A stretch of DNA of 64,000 nt from Mobula birostris (Eukaryota): the NCBI RefSeq assembly GCF_030028105.1, contig NC_092379.1, positions 87,407,006-87,471,005 of the forward strand, read 5' to 3'. The translations under genes were made by a program, and so were the position numbers. The notes beneath the pieces are model-generated. The model was not told the DNA's origin and searched no databases. It saw only the letters and a program-made list of their open reading frames with translations. Each line of letters starts with the position of its first letter. The first letter of the stretch is position 1. Shown here one piece after another: positions 6,341-35,839 of the stretch.

Positions 6341-8315
6341 AGATTAGATTAGATTATGAGGACACACAATCCTCTTTTATCGTCATTTAGTAATGCACGC
6401 ATTAAGACAGGATACAATATTCCTCCGGTGTAATATCACAAACCACAAGACAGACCAAGACTGAAAAACTAACAAAAACCACAGAATTATAACATATAGT
6501 TACAAAAGTGCAACAATACCATAACTTGATGAAGAACAGGCCATGGCACAGTAAAAAAGTTCAGAGTCTCTCGAATGTCCCACATCTCACGCAAACGGGA
6601 GAAGGAAGAAAACTCTCCCTGCCATGCCCAACCACAGTCCGACTCTGAGTCACCCGAAAACTTTGAGCCTCCGATCAGCCCTCCGACACCGAGCACCATC
6701 TCTATCTGAACGATTCGACCGCAGCCTTGGTCGCCAACAGCAAGCAAAGCTGGGGATTTTGGGGCCTTCCCTCCGGAAGATTCTCGATCGCCCAGAAACA
6801 GCAGCAGCGAACCGGCGTTTCAGAAATTTCTCCAGATGTTCCTCTGTGCTGTGGAAGACGTCCTGCCTCGTCCCTGTGCCGAAGACGCTGCGCCCCAGTG
6901 GCCTCAATGACTACAGGCCGGTGGCATTGATCTCCCACATCATGAAGACCCTGGAGAGACTTGTACTGGAGCTGCTCCGGCCTATGGCCAGGCCAAACTT
7001 AGATCCCCTCCAGTTCGCCTACCAGCCCCGACTAGGAGTTGAAGATGCCATCGTCTACCTGCTGAACCGTGTCTACGCCCACCTGGACAAGCCAGCGAGC
7101 TCTGTGAGGGTCATGTTTTTTGACTTCTCCAGTGTGTTCAATACCATCTGCCCTGCTCCGCTGGGGGAGAAGCTGACAGCGATGCAGGTGGATGCTTTCC
7201 TGGTGTCATGGATTCTTGATTACCTGACTGGCAGACCACAGTATGTGTGCTTGCAACAGTGTGTGTCTGACAGAGTGATCAGCAGCACTGGGGCTCCACA
7301 GAGGACTGTCTTGTCTCCCCTTCTCTTCACCATTTACACCTCGGACTTCAACTACTGCACAGAGTCTTGTCATCTTCAGAAGTTTTCTGGTGACTCTGCC
7401 ATAGTTGGATGCATCAGCAAGGGAGATGAGGCTGAGTACAGGGCTACGGTAGGAAACTTTGTCACATGGTGCGAGCAGAATTATCTGCAGATTAATGTGA
7501 AAAAGGCTAAGGAGCTGGTGGTAGACCTGAGGAGAGCTAAGGTACCAGTGACCCCTGTTTCCATCCAGGGGGTCAGGGTGGACATGGTGGAGGATTACTA
7601 ATACCTGGGGATACGAATTGACAATAAACTGGACTGGTCAAAGAACACTGAGGCTGTCTACAAGAAGGGTCAGAGCCGTCTCTATTTCCTGAAGAGACTG
7701 AGGTCCTTTAACATCTGCCAGACAACGCTGAAGATGTTCTACGAGTTTGTGGTGGCCAGTGCTATCATGTTTGCTGTTGTGTGCTGGGGCAGCAGGCTGA
7801 GGGTAGCAGACACCAACAGAATCAACAAACTCATTCGTAAGGCCAGTGATGTTGTGGGGATGGAACTGGACTCTCTGACGGTGGTGTCTGAAAAGAGGAT
7901 GCTGTCCAAGTTGCATGCCATCTTGGTCAATGTCTCCCATCCACTACATAATGTACTGGGTGGGCACAGGAGTACATTCAGCCAAAGAGTCATTCCACCG
8001 AGATGCAGCACAGAGCGTCATAGGAAGTCATTCCTGCCTGTGGCCAACAAACTTTACCACTCCTCCCTTGGAGGGTCAGACACCTTGAGCCAATAGGTTG
8101 GTCCTGGACTTATTTCCTGGCATAATTTACATATTACTATTTAACTATTTATGGTTTTATTACTATTTATTATTTATGGAGCAACTGTAACGAAAATCCA
8201 ATTTCCCCCGGGATCAATAAAGTATGACTATGACTATGACTTTCATGTTTGTCTCCATCAAATTAGAACTGTCCATGGCCCCTATTTAACGGATATGATA
8301 TCATTTCACCGTAGA
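6341..8315 (-). mobile_element. Non-autonomous retroposon with (TCTAA)n tail (6341-6850 and 8241-8315)
   Basis: agattagattagatt tail and non-coding body. The body reads through as ctctgtgct|ttcatg once the Rex1(+) insert is removed. Confidence 0.65.
6849..8241 (+). mobile_element. Young 5'-truncated Rex1/Babar LINE (RT pseudogene)
   Basis: [51 protein letters not shown] (catalytic DD altered). Frameshift near 7598. Ends gggatcaataaagt plus (ATGACT)n. Confidence 0.95.
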
Positions 8316-16844: not shown

Positions 16845-19680
16845 GATGGACGGTTTGAGATGTGTCTATTTTAACATGAGGAGTACTGTGAACAAAGCAG
16901 ATGAGCTTAGAGCGTGGATCAGTACTTGGAGTTATGATGTGGTGGCCATTACAGAGACTTGGATGGTTCAGGGACAGGAATGGTAACTTCATGTGCTGGG
17001 TCTAGGTGTTTCAGAAAGGGCAGGGTGAGAGGCAAAAGATGTGAGGGCGTGGCACTGTTGATCAGATATAGTGTCATGGCTGAAGAAAAAGTGGACGTCA
17101 TGGAGGGATTGTCTACGGAGTCTCTATGGATGGAGGTTAGGAACAGGAAGGGGTCAATAACTTTACTGGGTGTTTGTTATAGGCAGCCCAATAGTAACAG
17201 GGATATCGAGGAGCAGATAGGGAAACAGATCCTGGAAAGGTGTAAAAATAACAGAGTTGTCATGATGGGAAATTTTAATTTCCCAAGTATCGATTGGCAT
17301 CTCCCTAGAGCAAGGAGATAAGATGGGGTGGAGTTTGTTAGGTGTGTTCAGGAAGGTTTCTTGACACAATATGTAGATAAGCCTACAAGAGGAGAGGCTG
17401 TACTTGATCTGGTATTGGGAAATGAACCTGGTCAGGTGTCAGATCTCTCAGTGGGACAGCATTTTGGAGATAGTGATCATAATTCTATCTCCTTTACAAT
17501 AGCATTGGAGAGAGATAGGAACAGACAAGTTAGAAAAGCGTTTAATTGGAGTAAGGGGAATTATGAGGCTATCAGACAGGAAATTGGAAGCTTAAATTGG
17601 GAACAGATGTTCTCAGGGAAAAGTATGGAGAAATGTGGCAAATGTTCAGGGGATATTTGTGTGGAGTTCTGCATAGACCTTCCAATGAGACAGGAAAATT
17701 ATGTTTAATGTTTTATGAAATTATGTTAGGTACATTCCAATGAGACAGAGAAATTATGTTAGGGTACAGGAACCATGGTTTACAAAGGCTGTAATAAATC
17801 TAGTCAAGAAGAAAAGAAAAGCTTACAAAAGGTTCAGAGAGTTAGGTAATATTAGGGATCTATAAGATTATAAGGCTAACAAGAAGGAGCTTAAAAAGGG
17901 AATCAGGACAGCCAGAAGGGGCCATGAGAAGGCCTTGACAAGCAGGATTAAGGAAAGCCCCAAGGCATTCTACAGGTATGTGAAGAGCAAGAGGATAAGA
18001 CGTGAAAGAATAGGACCTATCAAGTGTGACAGTAGGAAAGTGTGTATGGAACCAGAGGAAATAGCAGAGGTACTTAATGAATACTTTACTTCAGTATTCA
18101 CTATGAAAAAGGATCTTGGTGATTGTAATGATGACTTGCTGCAGACTGAAAAGCTTGAGCATGTAGATATTAAGAAAGGCGATGTGCTGGAGCTTTTGGA
18201 AAGCATCAAGTTGGATAAGTTGCCGGGACCGGATGAGATGCACCCCAGGCTACTGTGGGAGGTGAGGGAGGAGATTGCTGAGACCCTGGCAATGATCTTT
18301 GAATCATTAATGGGGATGGGAGAGGTTCTGAAGGATTGGAGGGTTGCAGATGTTGTTCCTTTATTCAGTAGAGATAGCCCAGGAAATTATATCCAGTGAG
18401 TCTTACTTCAGTGGTTGGTAAGTTGATGGAGAAGATCCTGAGAGGCAGGATTTATGAACATGCGGAGAGGTATAATATGATTAGGAATAGTCAGCATGGC
18501 TTTGTCAAAGGGAGGTTGTGCCTTACGAGCCTGATTGAATTTTTTGAGGATGTGACTAAGCACATTGATGAAGGAAGAGCAGTAGATGTAGTGTATGTGG
18601 ATTTCAGCAAGGCATTTGATAAGGTACCCCATGCAAGGTTTATTGAGAAAGTAAGGAGGCATAGGATCCAAGAAGACATTGCTTTATGGATCCAGAACTG
18701 GCTTGCCCACAGAATGCAAAGAGTGGTTGTAGACGGGTCTTATTCTGCATGGAGGTCGGTGACCAGTGGTGTGACTCTGGAATCTGTTCTGGGACCCTTA
18801 TTCTTTGTGATTTTTATAAATGACCTGGACGAGGAAGCGGAGGGATGGATTAGTAAGTTTGCTGATTACACTAAGGTTGGGGGTGTTGTAGATATTGTGG
18901 AGGGCTGTCAGAATTTACAGTGGGACATTGATAGGATGCAAAACTGGGCTGAAAAGTGGCAGATAGAGTTCAACCCAGGTAAATGTGAAGTGGTTCATTT
19001 TGGTAGGTCAAATATGATGGCAGAATATAGTATTAATGGTAAGACTCTTGGCAGTGTGGAGGATCAGAGGGATCTTGCGATCCAAGTCCATAGGACGCTC
19101 AAAGCAGCTGCGCAGGTTGACGCTGTGATTAAGAAGGCATACGGTGTACTGGCCTTCATTAATCATGGAATTGAATTTAGGAGCCGAGTGGTAATGTTGC
19201 AGCTACATAGGACATTGGTCAGACCCCACCTGGAGTACTGTGTTCAGTTCTGGTCGCCTCACTACAGGAAGGATGTGGAAGCCATAGAGAGGCTGGAGAG
19301 GAGATTTACAAGGATGTTGCCTGGATTGGGGAGCATACCTTATGAAAACAGGTTGAGTCAACTCGGCCTTTTCTCCTTGGAGCAATGGAGAATGAGAGGT
19401 GACCTGATAGAGGTGTATAAGATGACAAGAGGCATTGATTGTGTGGATAGTCAGAGGCTTTTTCCCAGAGCTGAAATGGTTGCCACAAGAGGACACAGGT
19501 TTAAGGTGCTGGGGAGTAGGTACACAGGAGATGTCAGGGGTAAGTTTTTTACTCAGAGTACTGAGTGCGTGGAATGGGCTGCCGGCAACCGTGGTGGAGA
19601 CGGATATGATAGGGTCTTTTAAGAGACTTTTAGATAGGTACATGGAGCTTAGAAAAATAGAGAGCTATGGGAAAGTCTAG
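16845..19680 (+). pseudogene. CR1 ORF2 (APE endonuclease and RT), frameshifted
   Basis: ITETW, GNFNFP, LDLVL, SDHN (APE). SQHGF, DFSKAFD, SVLGPL, KFADY (normally FADD), RPHLEYC (RT). Confidence 0.95.
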
Positions 19681-25822: not shown

Positions 25823-27544
25823 TACCAATTGTTAGGGAGTATTCTGAAGTTATGTGAATATGGCAGATATTAAATCAACCAAGCACCAGGCTTCAGTTCT
25901 TATTGCAAATGTAGAACTGCAAACTTACATTGCAAACTTACATTAAGTAACTTAATATTGCAAACTTACATTAAGTAAGTTCAGGAAGTTTGCAGTTAGC
26001 GTCCAGGTATTTATTTTGTAAATTGCAAGCAGTAAATTGAAGTTAAAAGCACAGACTAAGAGTTTTCATATGCAAGAGTCAACATTAAAACAATTGGGTT
26101 GTGTTAATTGGCTTGCATTAAACCAGGCAACATGACTAAGTTATTTGCACCATTATGACTTGATTGCAAACTGGCAGACCAAAAAAATGTTGTCATTTAG
26201 TATATCAAACATGGTCGCAGGTATATGCAAAAACTATTGATTGCCTACTTACTATATTTGTTACTCAGAGGCAGCCCTGACAACATTAATTTGGCTCTCT
26301 GTTGTCCGGAGTTTTTAGACTACTTGTGTTAGTTGGTTTTCTCCAATGGCATTTTGACCTTCAGAGGTATCTTAACAATTACAATGTGCTTTCGCTATGC
26401 ATCTCAAAGGAACTGTTGTCATTGTAGGTAATGTCAATGTAACTATTGAAATTATATTGAATCAGCTACTGTTACCTTTGATCTTGTGGATACAAAATAT
26501 GATGTACTTTTGGGTTTTTGAGCCTCGACTGAGAATCTATCCAAAATGCTGCCTGATTGCTGTGCTGAATAAAGACTCCAATATCAGCAACTTCAGTGTC
26601 TCTCTGGTGACTGTGATCCCATTCCCAACATTTTTGTCTCTTGCAAATGCAACCTCTTAGCCTAAAGAGCATCTCGTGCTTTTAACTTCTATTTACTGCT
26701 TGTGATTTACAAAAATATACTGAAGTCTAATAAGTCTTCAATTTCTTTACATTTACAGTAAGAACTAAAGCCTAGTTGTTGTTTGAATTAATATCTGCTA
26801 TATTGACATAACTCCAGAACACTCCCTGACATCAAGAAAACAAAAGAGCTGGTCATTGACTTAAGAAAAGGGTGCAGTGCACGTGCTCCTGTCTAAATGA
26901 ATTGTGTTGCGGTTGTGAATGTTGAAAGCTTCAATTGCAACATGTGAACATTACAGATATTCTTTCCAGGTCCAACCACAAAGATACTATGGCCAATAAC
27001 TCTTACTAAACCTCTAATTCCTCAGGAGGCTAATGTAATTTGTCATGTCTCTGTAGACCCTTACCAATTTTTATTGGGGTATCTCAGAAAATTTGCTTGG
27101 TATGGCAACTGCTCTGAATGTGACTGCAAGAAACTATGGAGAATTGTGGACATAGCTCAACAATACATGGAAACCAGCCACCCTCTGTGGACTCTCTCTA
27201 CTTCTCACTGCTTCAGTAAAGCAGCCAGCATAATCAAAGATCTCACCCACCCCAGACATACTCCATTCTCCCCTCTCCCTTTGGGAAGAAGATAAAAAAG
27301 TCAGAACAATTGTACTACCAGGCTCATGGACAGCGTCTATCCAACTAATATCATTCTTTCGAATGGGTCTCTTGTTTGATAAGGAGGACTCTTCACCTCA
27401 CAATCTACATAGCTCATTATAATCTTGCACTTTATCATTTGTCTGCACTGCACTTTTTCAGTAACCCTTACACTTTATTCTGGATTGTTATTGTTTTATC
27501 TTATTCTAGCTCAATGCACACTTTGTAATGATTTGATCTGTATG

Positions 27545-27769
27545 TGTGGTAAACCATATATACGTTGTAACTGGGTTAACTGGACACACCCCTCTGCTGA
27601 CTGCCCCTGTGGCTCCTCCCACAGATTCCTGAGTAAAGATGATTTCACCTTGCCCCTCCCCCTCAGTCCAGGGACAGACACTCAGCATGGAGGTCGTATT
27701 GTACAGCGAATAAAAGCCTTTCAGTATTTTTCCCAACTTCAGTCTTTTGGAGTTATTGAAGGAGCTTCA
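27545..27769 (+). repeat. 5' LTR
   Basis: TGTGGT...CTTCA, AATAAA at 27709, aligns with 34588-34815. Confidence 0.95.
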
Positions 27770-27795
27770 ATTTTATTTGCTGTAGGTTTCAAAGC

Positions 27796-28545
27796 ATGGA
27801 ACATGCCCTGAGATCCGACAAGTTAGATCTCAACCTGCAAACGCCTGAAGCTGGAAACGCTTTTGAACTCTGGCTGGCCTGCTTCGAATCATACCTAGAA
27901 GAGATTAAAGCGACCGACCCCGTAGCGAAGCACAAAGTTCTACTCTCCAGGGTCAGTTCATGGGTCTATTCGCTGATCAGAGACCAGCCGAGCTACGATG
28001 GCGTGATGAGTGCCCTCAAAGTACAATACCTGTGGCTGATAAACAGCGTCTACGCGCGACATCGCTTAGCAACATGGCAACAACGGCCCAGGGAATCAAG
28101 TGCTGAGTTCGTCCGGGCCCTACGGACGCTCGTGCGAGCCTGCTGAGCCGGCGGCGCAGCATGCAGAACTCCTAGTGAGAGACGCCTTCATCACGGGGAC
28201 CAGGTCAGTGTACGTGCGCCAGCTGCTGTTGGAAAAAGCCGATCTTACCTTAAGTTCGGCGACCGAGCTGGCCGACACGATGGAGGCCGCTCTGCATAAC
28301 TCTGAGGCTCTCCAGGCACGCGATCCCCTGACGGCCTCATGGGTGCCGCAGGCCCCACAACCCGCCGGCGAGTCGACCTTGGCTGCCGCCAGTCACGAGT
28401 CCACAAAGTGCTTCTTCTGCGGACTCGAGAAGCACCCCCAGAAATGCTGCCCAGCTTGACAAGCTACCTGCTCCAGCTGCAGAAAGAAGGGCGACTTCGC
28501 CAAGATCTGTAAGTCCAAACCGCAAGCGGGATCGAACAGTGCTGC
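27796..28545 (+). pseudogene. gag: Gypsy gag (capsid plus two zinc knuckles)
   Basis: ARHRLATWQQRPRES..EFVRAL, LVRDAFITG, CFFCGLEKHPQKCC, CSSCRKKGDFAKIC. Frameshift and stop present. Confidence 0.9.
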
Positions 28546-28639
28546 GTGTGAGACATGGGGGCGGCCATCTTGGTTGGCGCCGCCTACGACCAACGGGTGC
28601 TCACAGGGCACCCCACCGCGCCAGACCAAGACAGCAACT

Positions 28640-31600
28640 CAACCCTGGCCTCCGTGACCCTCGACCAAAGCACTCCCCACCAGCTCACAAAGTCAATGAT
28701 GGACATCCTGGTGGAGGGGTGCAGGACGAGCTGCCTGTTTGACACAGGCAGCACGGAGAGTTTTATCCACCCGGACATGGTGCAGCATTGTGGACTCGTG
28801 ATACGGCCGGTAAGTCAGAGGGTCACCATGGCTTCCGGGTTGCATGCAACAGGCATCCAGGGGAGTTGTGTAGCGACGCTAGTGGTGCAGGGCACAGAAT
28901 ACAGAGATTTTCTGTTACTAGTCATGCCTCAGCTCTGTGTCCCTGTGCTACTGGGGCTCGACTTCCAGAGCCACCTGAAAAGCGTGACAATGAAGTATGA
29001 TGGGCCCGTCCCACCAATTACTGTCATAAATCCCTAGTTTTGTAGGGATACGTCACATACCCCGCTACTGACCACACAAACACACCGACCCGCACATCCC
29101 ACCCAACACCATGCCAACTACCACACTACCGACGTCACTTGTGGCCTCTCCACCCTCAAGATCCCTCCCCCACCGCTGTTCACCAACCTGACCCCCGAAT
29201 GTAAACCTGTGGCAACTAAAAGCAGGAGGTACAGCACGGGGGACAGAGCTTTCATTAAGTCGGAGGTGCAGCGGCTGCTCAGGGAGGGGGTCATTGAGGC
29301 AAGCACAAGTCCTTGGAGGGCGCAGGTGGTTGTTCAAACAGGGAGAAGAATAGGATGGTCGTGGACTATAGCCAGACCATCAATAGGTTCACGCAGCTCG
29401 ACGCGTACCCTCTACCCTGCATCACGGATATGGTCATCAGACAGCCCAGTACAAGGGTACTCGACCATAGACCTAAAATCCGCTTACCATCAGCTCCCCA
29501 TCCGCCGGGAGGACCGCCCTTACATCGCCTTCGAGGCGGACGGCAGGCTTGATCAATTCCTGCGCATCCCCTTCGGTGTCATGGTCTTCCAGAGGGCAAT
29601 GGACCAGATGGTGGACCAGTTCCAACTGAAGGCCAGGTTCTCATATCTGGATAACATCACCATCTGTGGTCACGACCAGCAGGATCACGACAACAACCTC
29701 CAAAAACTTCTCTAAGCGGCCAGAGCTTTCAATCTCACCTATAATCCTAGGGGGACCAATATCCTGGCAGGGAGATTAGCGAGGGCTACTGAGGTGACTT
29801 TAAACTAGAATGGTTGGGGAGTGGGAACCAAATTAAAGAGGCTAGGCGAGAGGAGGTTAGTTCACAACAGAGGGATAGGAATCAGTGCAGAGAGACAGAG
29901 GGATGTAAAATGAGGGTAGAAGCAAAAGTAGTAAGGTGAAAAGTAAAAGTGGCAGGCCGACAAATCCAGGGCAAGAATCAAAAAGAGCCACTTTTCAACA
30001 TAATTGTATAAGGGCTAAGAGTGTTGTAAAAGCAAGCCTGAAGGCTTTGTGTGTCAATGCAAGGAGCATTTGTAACAAGGTGGATGAATTAAAAGTGCAG
30101 ATTGTTATTAATGAATATGATATAGTTGGCATCACAGAGACGTGGCTCCAGGTGACCAAGGATGGGAGCTCAACATTCAGGGATATTCAATATTCAGGAG
30201 GGATAGACATGAAAGAAAAGGAGGTGGGGTGGTGTTGCTGGTTAGAGAGGAGATTAACGCAATAGAAAGGAAGGGCCTAAGCCAGGAGGATGTGGAATCG
30301 ATATGGGTAGAGCTGCATAACACTAAGGGGCAGAAAACGCTGGTGGGAGTTGTGTACAGGCCACCTAACAGTAGTATTGAGGTTGGGGATGGTATTAAAC
30401 AGGAAATTAGAAATGTGTGTGATAAAAGAACAGCAGTTATAATGGGTGACTTCAATCTACATGTAGATTGGGTGAACCAAATTGGTAAGGGTGCTGAGGA
30501 AGAGGATTTCTTGGAATGTATGCAAGATGGTTTTTTGAACCAACATGTCGAGGAACCAACTAGAGAGCAGGCTATTCTAGACTGGGTATTGAGCAATGAG
30601 AAAGGGTTAATTAGCAATCCTGTCGTGAGAGGCACCTTGGGTAAGAGTGACCATAATATGATGGAATTCTTCATTAAGATGGAGAGTGACATAGTTAATT
30701 CAGAAACAAAGATTCTGAACTTAAAGAGGAGTAACTTTGAAGGTATGAGACGTGAGTTAGCTAAGATAGACTGGCAATTGACACTTAGAGTGTTGACGGT
30801 GGATATGCAATGGCAAGCATTGAAAGATCACATGGATGAACTACAACAATTGCATCCCAGTTTGGCAAAAGAATAAATTAAGGAAGATAGTGCACCCGTG
30901 GCTGACAAGGGAAATTAGGGATAGTATCAATTCCAAAGAAGAAGCATACAAATTAGCCAGAAAAAGTGGCTCACCTGAGGACTGGGAGAAATTCAGAGAT
31001 CAGCTGAGGAGGACAAAAGGCTTAATTAGGAAGGGGAAAAAAGATTATGAGAGAAAACTGGCAGGGAACATAAAAACTGACTGTAAAAGCTTTTATAGAT
31101 ATGTGAAAAGAAAAAGATTGGTTAAGACAAATGTAGGTCCCCTACAGACAAAAACAGGTGAATTGACTATGGGGAGCAAGGACATGGCAGACCAATTGAA
31201 TAATTACTTTGGTTCTGTCTTCACTAAGGAGGATATAAATAATCTTCCGGAAATAGTAGGGGACAGAGGGTCCAGTGAGATGGAGGAACTAAGGGAAATA
31301 CATGTTAGTAGGGAAGTGGTGTTAGGTAAACTGAAGGGATTAAAGACAGATAAATCCCTAGGGCCAGATGGTCTGCACCCAGAGTGCTTAAGGAAGTAGC
31401 CCAAGAAATAGTGGATGCATTAGTGATAATTTTTCAAAACTCTTTAGATTCTGGACTATTTCCTGAGGATTGGAGGGTGGCTAATGTAACCCCACTTTTT
31501 AAAAAAGGAGGGAGGGAGAAACCGGGGAATTATAGACTGGTTAGCCTAACATCGGTGGTGGGGAAACTGCTGGAGTCAGTTATCAAAGATGTGATAACAG

Positions 31601-33180
31601 CACATTTGGAAAGCGGTGAAATGATCGGACAAAGTCAGCATGGATTTGTGAAAGGAAAATCATGTCTGACGAATCTCATAGAATTTTTTGAGGATGTAAC
31701 TAGTAGAGTGGATAGGGGAGAACCAGTGGATGTGGTATATTTGGATTTTCAGAAGGCTTTTGACAAGGTCCCACACAGGAGATTAGTGTGCAAACTTAAA
31801 GCTCACGGTATTGGGGGTAAGGTATTGATGTGGATAGAGAATTGGTTAGCAGACAGGAAGCAAAAAGTGGGAATAAACGGGGCCTTTACTGAATGGCAGG
31901 CAGTGACTAGTGGGGTACCGCAAGGCTCAGTGCTGGGACCCCAGTTGTTTACAATATATATTGATGACTTAGATGAGGGAATTAAATGCAGCATCTCCAA
32001 GTTTGCGGATGACACGAGCTGGGCGGCAGTGCTAGCTGTGAGGAGGATGCTAAGAGGATGCAGGGTAACTGGGATAGGTTAGGTGAGTGGGCCTATGAAT
32101 TCATGGCAGATGCAATTTAATGTGGATAAATGTGAAGTTATCCACTTTGGTGGCAAAAACAGGAAAACAGATTATTATCTGAATGGATTCCGATTAGGAA
32201 AAGGGGAGGTGCAACGAGACCTGGATGTCATTATACACCAGTCATTGAAAGTGGGCATGCAGGTACAGCAGGCGGTGAAAAAGGCGAATGGTATGCTGGC
32301 ATTTATAGCAAGAGGATTCGAGTACAGGAGCAGGGATGTACTACTGCAGTTGTACAAGGCCTTGGTGAGACCACATCTGGAGTATTGTGTGCAGTTTTGG
32401 TCCCCTAATCTGAGGAAAGACATCCTTGCCATAGAGGGAGTACAAAGAAGGTTCACCAGATTGATTCCTGGGATGACAGGACTTTCACATGATGAAAGAC
32501 TGGATGAACTAGGCTTATACTCGTTGGAATTTAGAAGATTGAGGGGGGATCTGATTGAAACGTATAAAATCCTAAAGGGATTTTGACAGGCTAGATGCAA
32601 GAAGATTGTTCCCGATGTTGGGGAAGTCCAGAACGAGGGGTCACAGTTTGAAGATAAAGAGGAAGCCTTTTAGGACTGAGATTAGGAAAAACTTCTTCTC
32701 CCAGAGAGTGGTGAATCTGTGGAATTCTCTGCCACAGGAAACAGTTGAGGCCAGTTCATTGGCTATATTTAAGAGGGAGCTAGATATGGCCCTTGTGGCT
32801 AAAGGGATCAGGGGGTAAGGAGGGAAGGCTGGTACAGGGTTCTGAGTTGGATGATCAGCCATGATCATACTGAATGGCGGTGCAATCTTTAAGGGCCGAA
32901 TGGCCTACTCTTGCACCTATTTTCTATGTTTCTATAACAAGGACGAGTGTGTCTTCGGGAACACCCGACTTACTATCCTTGGGTGTGTTGTGAAGAACGG
33001 AGTCATTGGCCCTGACCCCGACCGTATGCGCCCCCTGTTGGAACTCCCTCTTCCCAACACCCTCAGAGCCCACAAAAGATCCCTGGGATTCTTTTCATAC
33101 TACACCCAATGGGTCTCTAATTACGCAGACAAGGCCCGCCCCCTGGTCAAGTCCACCACATTCCCCCTCTCAGCCGAGGT
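28640..33180 (+). pseudogene. pol: Gypsy pol: aspartic protease and RT, interrupted by CR1 at 29745-32935
   Basis: CLFDTGSTESFI, STSPWRAQV, RMVVDYSQTINRFTQLDAYPLP, IDLKSAYHQ, IPFG, YLDN. FNLTY|NKDECVF rejoins across the insert. Confidence 0.95.
29745..32935 (+). mobile_element. CR1 LINE (subfamily B) nested in the Gypsy RT
   Basis: End of ORF1, APE (GITETW, YRPP, GDFN, SDHN), RT ([15 protein letters not shown]), tail ttttctatgtttctat. TSD CTATAA at 29739-29744 / 32932-32937. Confidence 0.97.
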
Positions 33181-34520
33181 TCACCCTGCTAACTGACCAG
33201 CACTCAGTCGCGTTCATGTTTAATAACCAACAGCGGAGCAAAATCAAAAATGATGAATTTCTGAGGTGGAGAATTGAACTCTCCACCTTCAACTATGACA
33301 TCATGTGCAGGCCTGGGAAGCTCAACGAGCCCTCTGATGCCCTCTTCCAGAGAACGTGCGCCAGCGCGCAGATTGACTGGCTATATGTCCTACATGTAGG
33401 TCTTTGCCTCCCGGGGGTCACCCGGCTTTTCGACTTTGTGAAAGCCCAGAACCTGCCTTACTCCCTTGAGGAGATCAGGACGATGACCAGGGACTGCCAA
33501 GTCTGCGCAGAGTACAAACCGCACTTCTACCGACCCGAAAAGGCACAACTCATCAAGGCCACCCGCCCCTTTGAGCGACCGAGTGTTGACTTTAAGGGCC
33601 CCCTTCCCTCCACCGACCACAATGTGTACTTTCTTAACGTTATCGATGAGTACTCGTGGTTCCCCTTCGCCATCCCCAGCCCCGACACCACTACCATGTC
33701 AGTTATAAAAGCCCTGTGCAAGCTCTTCACTCTGTTCGGATACCCATGCAATATCCACAGTGACAGAGGGTCCTCGTTTATGAGTGACGAGCTGCGCCAA
33801 TACCTACTGGCTAGGGGAATTGCAACTAGTAGGACCACGAGCTATAATCCCCGAGGGAATGGACAGGTGGAGAAGGAGAATGCCACAGTGTGGAAAGCCA
33901 CACTCTTAGCCCTCAGGTCAAAGGGACTGCCGGTCTCCCGTTGGCAGGAGGTTATTCCCGAGGCACTCCACTCCATCGGCTCCCTGTTACGCACGTGCAC
34001 CAATGCCACCCCTCATGAGCGGCTCTTTTCTTTTCCCAGAAAGTCGACCACTGGAACCACCCTACCAACTTGGCTGATGTCCCCGGGGCCAGTGCTGCTC
34101 CGGAAACATGCGAGGAGCAATAAATACTCCCCGATAGTCGAGAGGTTTCACTTACTTCATGCGAACCCCCAGTATGCCTATGTGGTTTTACCTGATGGGT
34201 GGGAGGGCACGGTCTCCATCTGCGACCTGGCGCCCGCAGGAGAACCGGGCCCCTACCCTGAACACTCCGTGGTGACTATTGACCCCGTACCCACCAATAT
34301 ATATACCCACGAGACACCGTGCACTCCAAGCCCTACACCGACACCACACGACACTTCCATACCAGGCGCGATGCACACGCACGAGGGATTACCAACGTCT
34401 AACGTGCTGGCACCTCAAGTCAGGCCGGAGCCAGCAGAACCAACGTCGCCAATACAATCACCAGCGGTGCTACGTAGATCACAGCGACGGACTCGACCGC
34501 CTGATAGACTTGACTGTAAA
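33180..34520 (+). pseudogene. Gypsy RNase H C-terminal tip and integrase
   Basis: RFTLLTDQHSV..RWRIELS. Degenerate HHCC (LHVGLCLPG..CQVC). DDE triad VDFKG / HSDRG / GQVEKEN. C-terminal LRRSQRRTRPPDRL. Confidence 0.95.
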
Positions 34521-34569: not shown

Positions 34570-34587
34570 AAAAAAAGAAGGGGTGAA
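34570..34587 (+). other. Polypurine tract
   Basis: aaaaaaagaaggggtgaa immediately before the 3' LTR. Confidence 0.85.
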
Positions 34588-34815
34588 TGTGGTAAACCAT
34601 ATATATGTTGTAACTGGGTTAACTGTCTGGACACGCCCCTCTGTTGGCTGCCCCGGTGGCTCCTCTCATAGAGTCCCGTATAAAAGTGTTTTGCCTTGCC
34701 TCTCCCCGTCAGTCCGGGGGCAGACACTCACCATGGAGGTCGTATTGTACAGTGAATAAAAGCCTTTTAGTATTTTACCCAACTTCAGTTTTTTGGAGTT
34801 ATTGAAGGAGCTTCT
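34588..34815 (+). repeat. 3' LTR
   Basis: Copy of the 5' LTR. TATAAAA at 34679, Inr-like TCAGT near 34709, AATAAA at 34755. Confidence 0.95.
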
Positions 34816-35839
34816 GTACGAACAGTATACCAGGCAACGATTTCACTATACCTTGGTACATGCGACAATAGTAAACCAATACCAGTACCAACAAACTCCA
34901 CTCCTCCCTCTAGTATATGTCACTATGCAAATCACTCTCTAGATCTGTTCTCACTTGTCATAAATTTCTTGAACTCATTATCTTCAATTTGCCTATGTTT
35001 CGATCATACTTCTATGAATCACCTAGAAAAAACTGACTGCGCTAATGATTGCTGAAGATTACCATATCGGCTTATTTTCATAATTGCATTAATTTAGAGA
35101 CTATTAGTTTCCGTTTAGAAATATTTTGCAATTGAATTAAAGAAAGTACAATGGATGTTGATAAATTTGTAGTAAAATTTGGTAAATGCTTGTAACTAAG
35201 CGAACTAAGGTTTGTATAAAGGAGAAAAATTACTGACCCAAAATACTTACATTGCGTTTCTTTGCAAAGATGATGCTTGACCCAGTGAGCATTTTTTTTG
35301 TTAAACTGTGACAAGGGAAGTGGCTCCAAATAAGTAAAATGCATGAACAATATGAGGTGTCGTTCCCTTCTTTTTCTAATATGCAGAGTAGAATTATACT
35401 TAGCACAGTATAGATGATCTACCACATTTAGTGACTACTGCAAAGGCAGCATAGAATAACTACTTTTCTTTAAGGAACTTGTTAGAGAATATAACGGAAG
35501 TAATAATAAATATCATTCACTGATGAGAATTTGACATTTTCTTGTAGCAGTCCCTGTGTACATTAGACCTGCATTGAATTTTCTTAAATCTACATTGGTT
35601 CATATCTTCAATGAGCTGATCTGAAATGCCTGACTTCTGTAGCATGCAGTTTAATGAGGCCTATACTTAAAAGTTCATTTTCTGTTAATTATTTCCATCT
35701 ATGTTCTCTGCATGGTTCATTGGACAATGGTGCTGTCCTTTTACAAATAAAAGTGATGAAAAATTTTTTTAAAAGGTACATGAGTACCAGAGAGGAGGAA
35801 TTGGAGGCCTTAAAACCATTAAGGTATAGTAAATCATAA

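Follow-up and report, generated by a model that had tools for sequence, protein, structure and literature searches.

A fold-back at the primer position of a non-chromovirus Gypsy clade suggests self-primed reverse transcription

In LTR retrotransposons the bases that abut the 5′ LTR form the primer site, and the position of the primer defines the U5 end of the DNA. We analysed a 64,000-nt stretch of the Mobula birostris genome (referred to here, as a whole, as the window) in which a decayed Ty3/Gypsy element carries at its 5′ end a fold-back between these bases and its own LTR, and asked what primes reverse transcription in such an element.

The element and its fold-back in the ray genome

The element has the Ty3/Gypsy features of TG...CA LTRs, a target duplication, the order protease, RT, RNase H, integrase, and a polypurine tract. 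Its parts are as follows.

27540..27544, + strand: left target-site duplication GTATG (right copy GTACG at 34816-34820)
27545..27769, + strand: 5′ LTR, TG...CA, 225 bp (LTR alignment)
27631..27669, + strand: TATA position, decayed in the window copy, and initiator-like TCAGTCC at 27663-27669 (motif)
27677..27695, + strand: small predicted hairpin with a constant stem and a variable 6-nt loop (fold prediction)
27702..27715, + strand: predicted self-primer with AATAAA (27709-27714), predicted cut after 27715 (pairing)
27716..27765, + strand: U5 stem-loop starting at the base after the predicted cut (fold prediction)
27770..27784, + strand: one unpaired A, then the putative primer-binding site complementary to the element's own LTR, no TGG (sequence)
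27796..34510, + strand: decayed gag-pol, comprising Gag with two CCHC knuckles, protease, RT, RNase H and integrase, without a chromodomain
29745..32931, + strand: LINE of ~3.2 kb inserted in RT, flanked by 6-bp repeats (Pfam: endonuclease and RT)
34570..34587, + strand: polypurine tract
34588..34815, + strand: 3′ LTR with 88.8% identity to the 5′ LTR and a changed last base (LTR alignment)

Stops, frameshifts and a deletion of ~260 bp near 33178 damage gag-pol, and the LINE within it is, from its look, presumably of the CR1 type. The LTR boundary is real, since the 3′ LTR diverges at the same point and the 5-bp target duplication flanks the element; host DNA after the 3′ LTR holds no complement. 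A first look at the genome returned 1666-1738 candidates, and the closest named proteins come from the rays Mobula and Hypanus. Twenty copies were fetched and ten scored; all ten have 5-bp target duplications with at most one mismatch, and uninterrupted copies are ~4.4-4.5 kb long with LTRs 93-96% identical. Despite its matching target duplication the window copy falls below this range of LTR identity, and it is either older or has had one LTR converted. Elsewhere in the window two further RT-bearing frames (6555-7601 and 18378-19622) are LINE-like by context, and no host gene frame of at least 200 aa was found in the window.

Beyond the CTTCA that ends the LTR at 27769 and the single A at 27770, the sequence TTTTATTTGCTGTA (27771-27784) pairs with TACAGCGAATAAAA of the LTR (27702-27715) through 13 Watson-Crick pairs and one G-U, and the gag ATG stands at 27796; on all of these points the preliminary description of the locus was accurate. 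The stretch 27695-27795 folds at -30.5 kcal/mol (z -4.59, with 0 of 200 shuffles as good), and the predicted fold contains the internal U5 stems that had also been described; for the matching 3′-LTR stretch the fold z is -2.3. Among the 60 best-matching copies of the ray family, the 14 positions are all paired in 43, with 13 paired in 16 copies and 11 in one. The position of the window's G-U is Watson-Crick in 47 of these copies, G-U in 8 and mismatched in 5, so the G-U is, as had been suggested, decay in that copy. Most copies have a longer pairing of 15-16 nt (position 15 is paired in 50/60 and position 16 in 58/60, G-U included), and position 17 is paired in 0/60. None of the 60 has a TGG primer site after the LTR, which rules out that a canonical site was deleted in the window copy and upholds the earlier statement that a tRNA site is absent.

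An exact pattern for a perfect 12-bp complement matched 427 copies in the genome, and the reversed-pattern control matched 0. Copies of one family cannot show covariation: the one variant tested within the ray family occurs in 0 double and in 7 and 3 single-side copies, an unmirrored pattern that is expected for decay after insertion, and the test is powerless against 427 unchanged copies. Upstream of the pairing, TATAAA is present at the decayed TATA position in 44/60 copies and at 34679 in the window's 3′ LTR. The leader hairpin stops 5 nt upstream of the paired segment; the 50 of 60 copies in which its pattern matched carry seven loop variants (ACTGTG 23, AGCATG 10, ACCATG 9, and others), which differ by subfamily.

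Pairing across distant families

Relatives (35-53% protein identity) were retrieved from metagenomes with an alignment built from the hits of a 50%-representative search. We fetched DNA for 80 of 503 confirmed metagenome loci, which are eukaryote by-catch, and for 10 MAG loci; the Gag start was included in 55 of the 90, and 50 lay far enough from the contig end. The ten bacterial MAG contigs (L161-L170) carry eukaryotic-type Gypsy elements and are likely host contamination of the bins.

The letters of the post-LTR stretch differ between families, yet every stretch is complementary to the LTR of its own element in a single fixed register, in which a partner ending in ...AAA (followed by GCC or ACC) lies opposite CA-N-TTT, and the putative primer site begins one base past the terminal CA of the LTR. 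Where a second LTR fixes the LTR ends (19 relatives and 2 ray copies), the Watson-Crick run reaches 10-17 nt in 15 of 21 elements; the host flank behind the 3′ LTR, used as a control, gives runs of at most 7, and cross-element matches to another LTR occur among kin only. The window copy itself scores a run of 7 in this test, or 14 with G-U, and the other five misses, with decayed or mis-set ends, all show the duplex in a blind scan for the best duplex upstream of gag. That scan scored at least 10 in 44 of 49 loci versus 5/48 and 7/40 control stretches; 32 of the 49 loci beat all 30 shuffles, and in 5 no duplex was found.

For an analysis by columns, ten loci were dropped (8 lacking CA-N-TTT, 2 short), and the 41 loci used gave 34 distinct pairs. 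The register was set from positions 1-11, and positions 12-16, which are independent of this setting, pair in 29, 28, 21, 22 and 21 of the 34, where column composition alone predicts 13, 18, 15, 10 and 12. Pairing is at chance from position 17 onward; across families the duplex measures 13-16 bp and breaks off sharply after 16. Positions 4-16 use 2-4 different pair types among 27 distinct sites; these column counts overstate independence, as the families share ancestry, and single mirrored events are unaffected by this. One such event separates L087 and L088: their gag is identical at 299 of 300 positions, yet a single change shared by the two LTRs has its mirror image in the primer site. Mirrored changes also distinguish L083 from L086, L083 from L093 and L105 from L141. 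Among 16 hand-picked related pairs, mirrored changes were found in 9 and solely unmirrored ones in 7, the latter being read as decay after insertion. The complementarity is therefore kept, and covaries, across relatives.

TGG occurs in one of the 41 loci (L116, a mis-set site), and gag starts within ~30 nt of the LTR end, so that no other primer site fits. Folded in isolation, the local fold-back has a mean pair probability of 0.64-0.99 in 27 families; the U5 stem after the predicted cut is paired at P>0.5 in 14 of 27 and reaches a shuffle p<=0.1 in 7 of 27, a moderate level of support.

Twenty regions of the same genome served as controls. Four sushi-type elements (L209, L212, L214 and L222, with a chromodomain confirmed in L214) have predicted self-primers of 10-11 nt located 166-283 nt from the LTR end, and the ray genome thus appears to host two distant self-priming lineages, sushi-type chromoviruses and the fold-back clade. 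Two elements that we take, from their motifs, to be Mag-A-like (L218 and L219) show no comparable fold-back, their best run being 9 nt with G-U, and one of them has a TGG six bases after the LTR. In both, a T-run follows the LTR (L218:2143-2168, L219:2043-2068), and a putative tRNA site starts 5-6 bases past the LTR end, an unusually large distance. The same test recovered TGG sites in L216 and L220, which resemble that of a CsRn1-like element described in PMC3587641.

Placement of the fold-back elements

In RT-RNase H quick trees with SH-aLRT support, estimated with ten DNA loci left out for short alignments, the fold-back elements group together on a single branch (SH-aLRT 99). A grouping with chromoviruses is rejected (p-AU 4.6e-66, from a 36-row quick tree with this genome's sushi-type elements as reference). 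No Chromo and no SH3_Tf2-1 domain turned up when the window integrase and a set of clade proteins were scanned, in line with the preliminary description as regards the chromodomain; both domains were recovered in the control L214. A ray-family copy at L206:1638-5435 lies inside a stretch with a chromovirus-type SH3 domain, apparently as a nested insertion.

The element had also been called Mag-like, a description that holds for Gag and less well for RT. Two CCHC knuckles are present in 7 of 9 clade proteins (one was found in the other 2), and in free trees the RT stands apart from the Mag-A-like elements; a joint clade of the fold-back elements and their sisters with the Mag-A-like group receives an AU p of 0.17, and the link to Mag is neither shown nor rejected. 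Two knuckles without a chromodomain fit either the Mag cluster or Cigr-1 in the supplement 3 table of PMC2774666. Named clade members occur, as proteins, in Trichinella and Cydia, and no relatives were found among viral contigs or in phage DNA. As far as sequences can tell, the earlier suggestion of tRNA-independent priming in a non-chromovirus lineage is supported by clade-wide covariation together with the tree.

A priming model, its rivals and known systems

The best explanation for these results, to which we assign a probability of roughly 0.8, is self-priming of the Tf1 type, in which the fold-back of the 14-16 bases after the LTR onto the element's own LTR would serve as a tRNA-free primer following an RNase H cut at 27715/27716. 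The R-region segment would anneal to the post-LTR site, and the element's own RNase H would cut after AAA; extension of the new 3′ OH through U5 by RT would then yield a short strong-stop DNA, 55 nt long in this element and 21-70 nt in its relatives. This DNA would jump to the 3′ end by way of the 10-30 nt that separate the cut from the poly(A) site. During plus-strand synthesis the primer site would finally be rewritten from the RNA primer, just as retroviruses copy their tRNA primer into the site. Such copy-back would explain the mirrored single changes between nearly identical elements. In families with a poly(A) signal in the primer, the ray family included, hiding the 5′ AAUAAA would be a likely side benefit.

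The start of transcription bears on the form of the primer. In the ray family the TATA and initiator-like motifs place the predicted start ~51 nt before the 3′ end of the primer, in keeping with the caveat about the start that the preliminary description had raised, and with 16 nt of pairing the primer probably carries a 5′ extension, the fate of which the model leaves unexplained. A TATA-like motif is found in 3 of 26 other families. In most families an initiator-like AG stands at a distance of 11 nt from the end of the primer (A in 24/34, G in 30/34), and pairing extends beyond it. The AG also resembles a splice acceptor, and a splicing-dependent primer was considered and rejected; the AG and the 5 bases upstream of it pair with the primer site, which identifies the unspliced sequence as the partner.

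Could the stem instead serve mainly to hide the poly(A) signal of the 5′ LTR, and perhaps the gag start codon, with something else doing the priming? Masking had been raised in the preliminary description, and part of it stands: AATAAA does lie in the paired segment here, a strong hexamer lies there in 13 of 26 other families, the partner strand exists at the 5′ end only, the ray TATA implies that the signal is transcribed, and pairing extends to the ATG in several families. As the main purpose of the stem it is weakened by the 13 of 26 families whose segment holds no strong hexamer (5 of the 13 have one downstream, and two are decayed copies), and it leaves the priming itself, the constant spacing of one base from the LTR end and the mirrored single changes without an account. 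We therefore consider masking improbable as the whole explanation and at most secondary, possibly of help in the ray family.

No more credence attaches to a variant in which the primer is the 3′ LTR copy of the segment, from the same or a co-packaged RNA and likewise cut after AAA. Wherever transcription starts, the segment and the bases upstream of it are present near the RNA 3′ end, and this would account for pairing over 16 nt; set against this are the strongly predicted local fold in 27 families (folded in isolation), the awkward strand transfer that would follow, and the want of a precedent in the literature examined. Least probable of all, and quite remote, is priming by a host RNA such as a tRNA half or other small RNA, with the LTR match secondary. 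Half-tRNA priming is known in Copia lineages (PMC6317226), and our tRNA comparison spanned 13 genes of three isotypes (Lys, Cys and Leu); within that set the best match is 4-5 nt, an Rfam search gave two chance matches and none near threshold, and the site varies across 27 families in step with the respective LTR. Because primer sites differ between families, one tRNA cannot serve the clade, a point that bears on the earlier question of a tRNA match alongside the direct comparison with three isotypes.

Returning to self-priming, a more ambitious version is that a Gypsy clade widespread in animals (rays, moths, nematodes and others) evolved it apart from Tf1/sushi and with a geometry of its own. 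A primer of 16 paired bases would be released from the interior of a longer leader by a cut immediately following the poly(A) signal, and one stem would set the primer, a very short strong-stop DNA, the strand-transfer repeat and 5′ poly(A) silencing. This version is tentative, and we would give it somewhat less than an even chance. The exact predicted cut site makes self-priming directly testable. Self-primed elements would escape silencing by tRNA fragments and would go unnoticed by element finders that require a tRNA site.

Some Gypsy families are listed as self-primed in Repbase. In the open literature, judged by titles and the beginnings of abstracts and with Repbase, GyDB and most subscription papers outside its scope, self-priming is described for Tf1/sushi, Tcn1 and the plant Copia TAR elements, and none is described for the ray clade. 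A single ORF of ~1200-1290 aa is common to the ray clade and to the Mag cluster and Cigr-1. The Mag cluster (A, B and C clades) and the Cigr-1 clade further share with it two CCHC knuckles and the lack of a chromodomain or env (PMC2774666); the Mag-A-like elements of this genome form a separate branch without a comparable fold-back. Self-priming is predicted for the plant Copia TAR elements (Houba, Osr-1) and moss Tcn1 by the same criterion, at least 10 nt starting 0-5 nt after the LTR and complementary to it (PMC6317226); these differ from the ray clade in belonging to another superfamily or to the chromoviruses, and in their plant hosts.

The closest parallel is with Tf1, Tf2, Tj1 and the Tf1/sushi chromoviruses, for which self-primed reverse transcription is described (PMC7175516, PMC4600332, PMC5341516 and bioRxiv 10.1101/2022.12.06.519325). 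The Tf1 primer consists of the 11 nt at the very 5′ end of the transcript, with RNase H cutting after base 11 (PMC7175516). Both groups lack a tRNA site, have post-LTR bases complementary to an LTR segment and a U5 stem adjoining the duplex, and follow the Ty3/Gypsy gene order; of the three duplexes of the Tf1 'pretzel', the ray clade has the central one, and a predicted U5 stem after the cut in the 14 of 27 families noted above. Unlike Tf1/sushi, the ray clade has no chromodomain or Tf2-type SH3 domain and does not group with chromoviruses. Its duplex is 13-16 bp rather than the 11 of Tf1 (10-11 in the sushi-type elements of this genome), its partner lies 20-69 nt from the LTR end instead of 166-283 and ends in AAA, often with a poly(A) signal, and the ray-family primer, judging from the predicted start, is probably not flush with the cap. 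Within Ty3/Gypsy, self-priming has been regarded as characteristic of the Tf1/sushi chromoviruses. The presence of a covarying fold-back in another clade, far removed from them, points either to independent invention or to an old mechanism kept in two places, and bears on whether hairpin priming preceded tRNA priming (PMC3601003). The mechanism itself is already known; here it most likely operates in a non-chromovirus Gypsy lineage.
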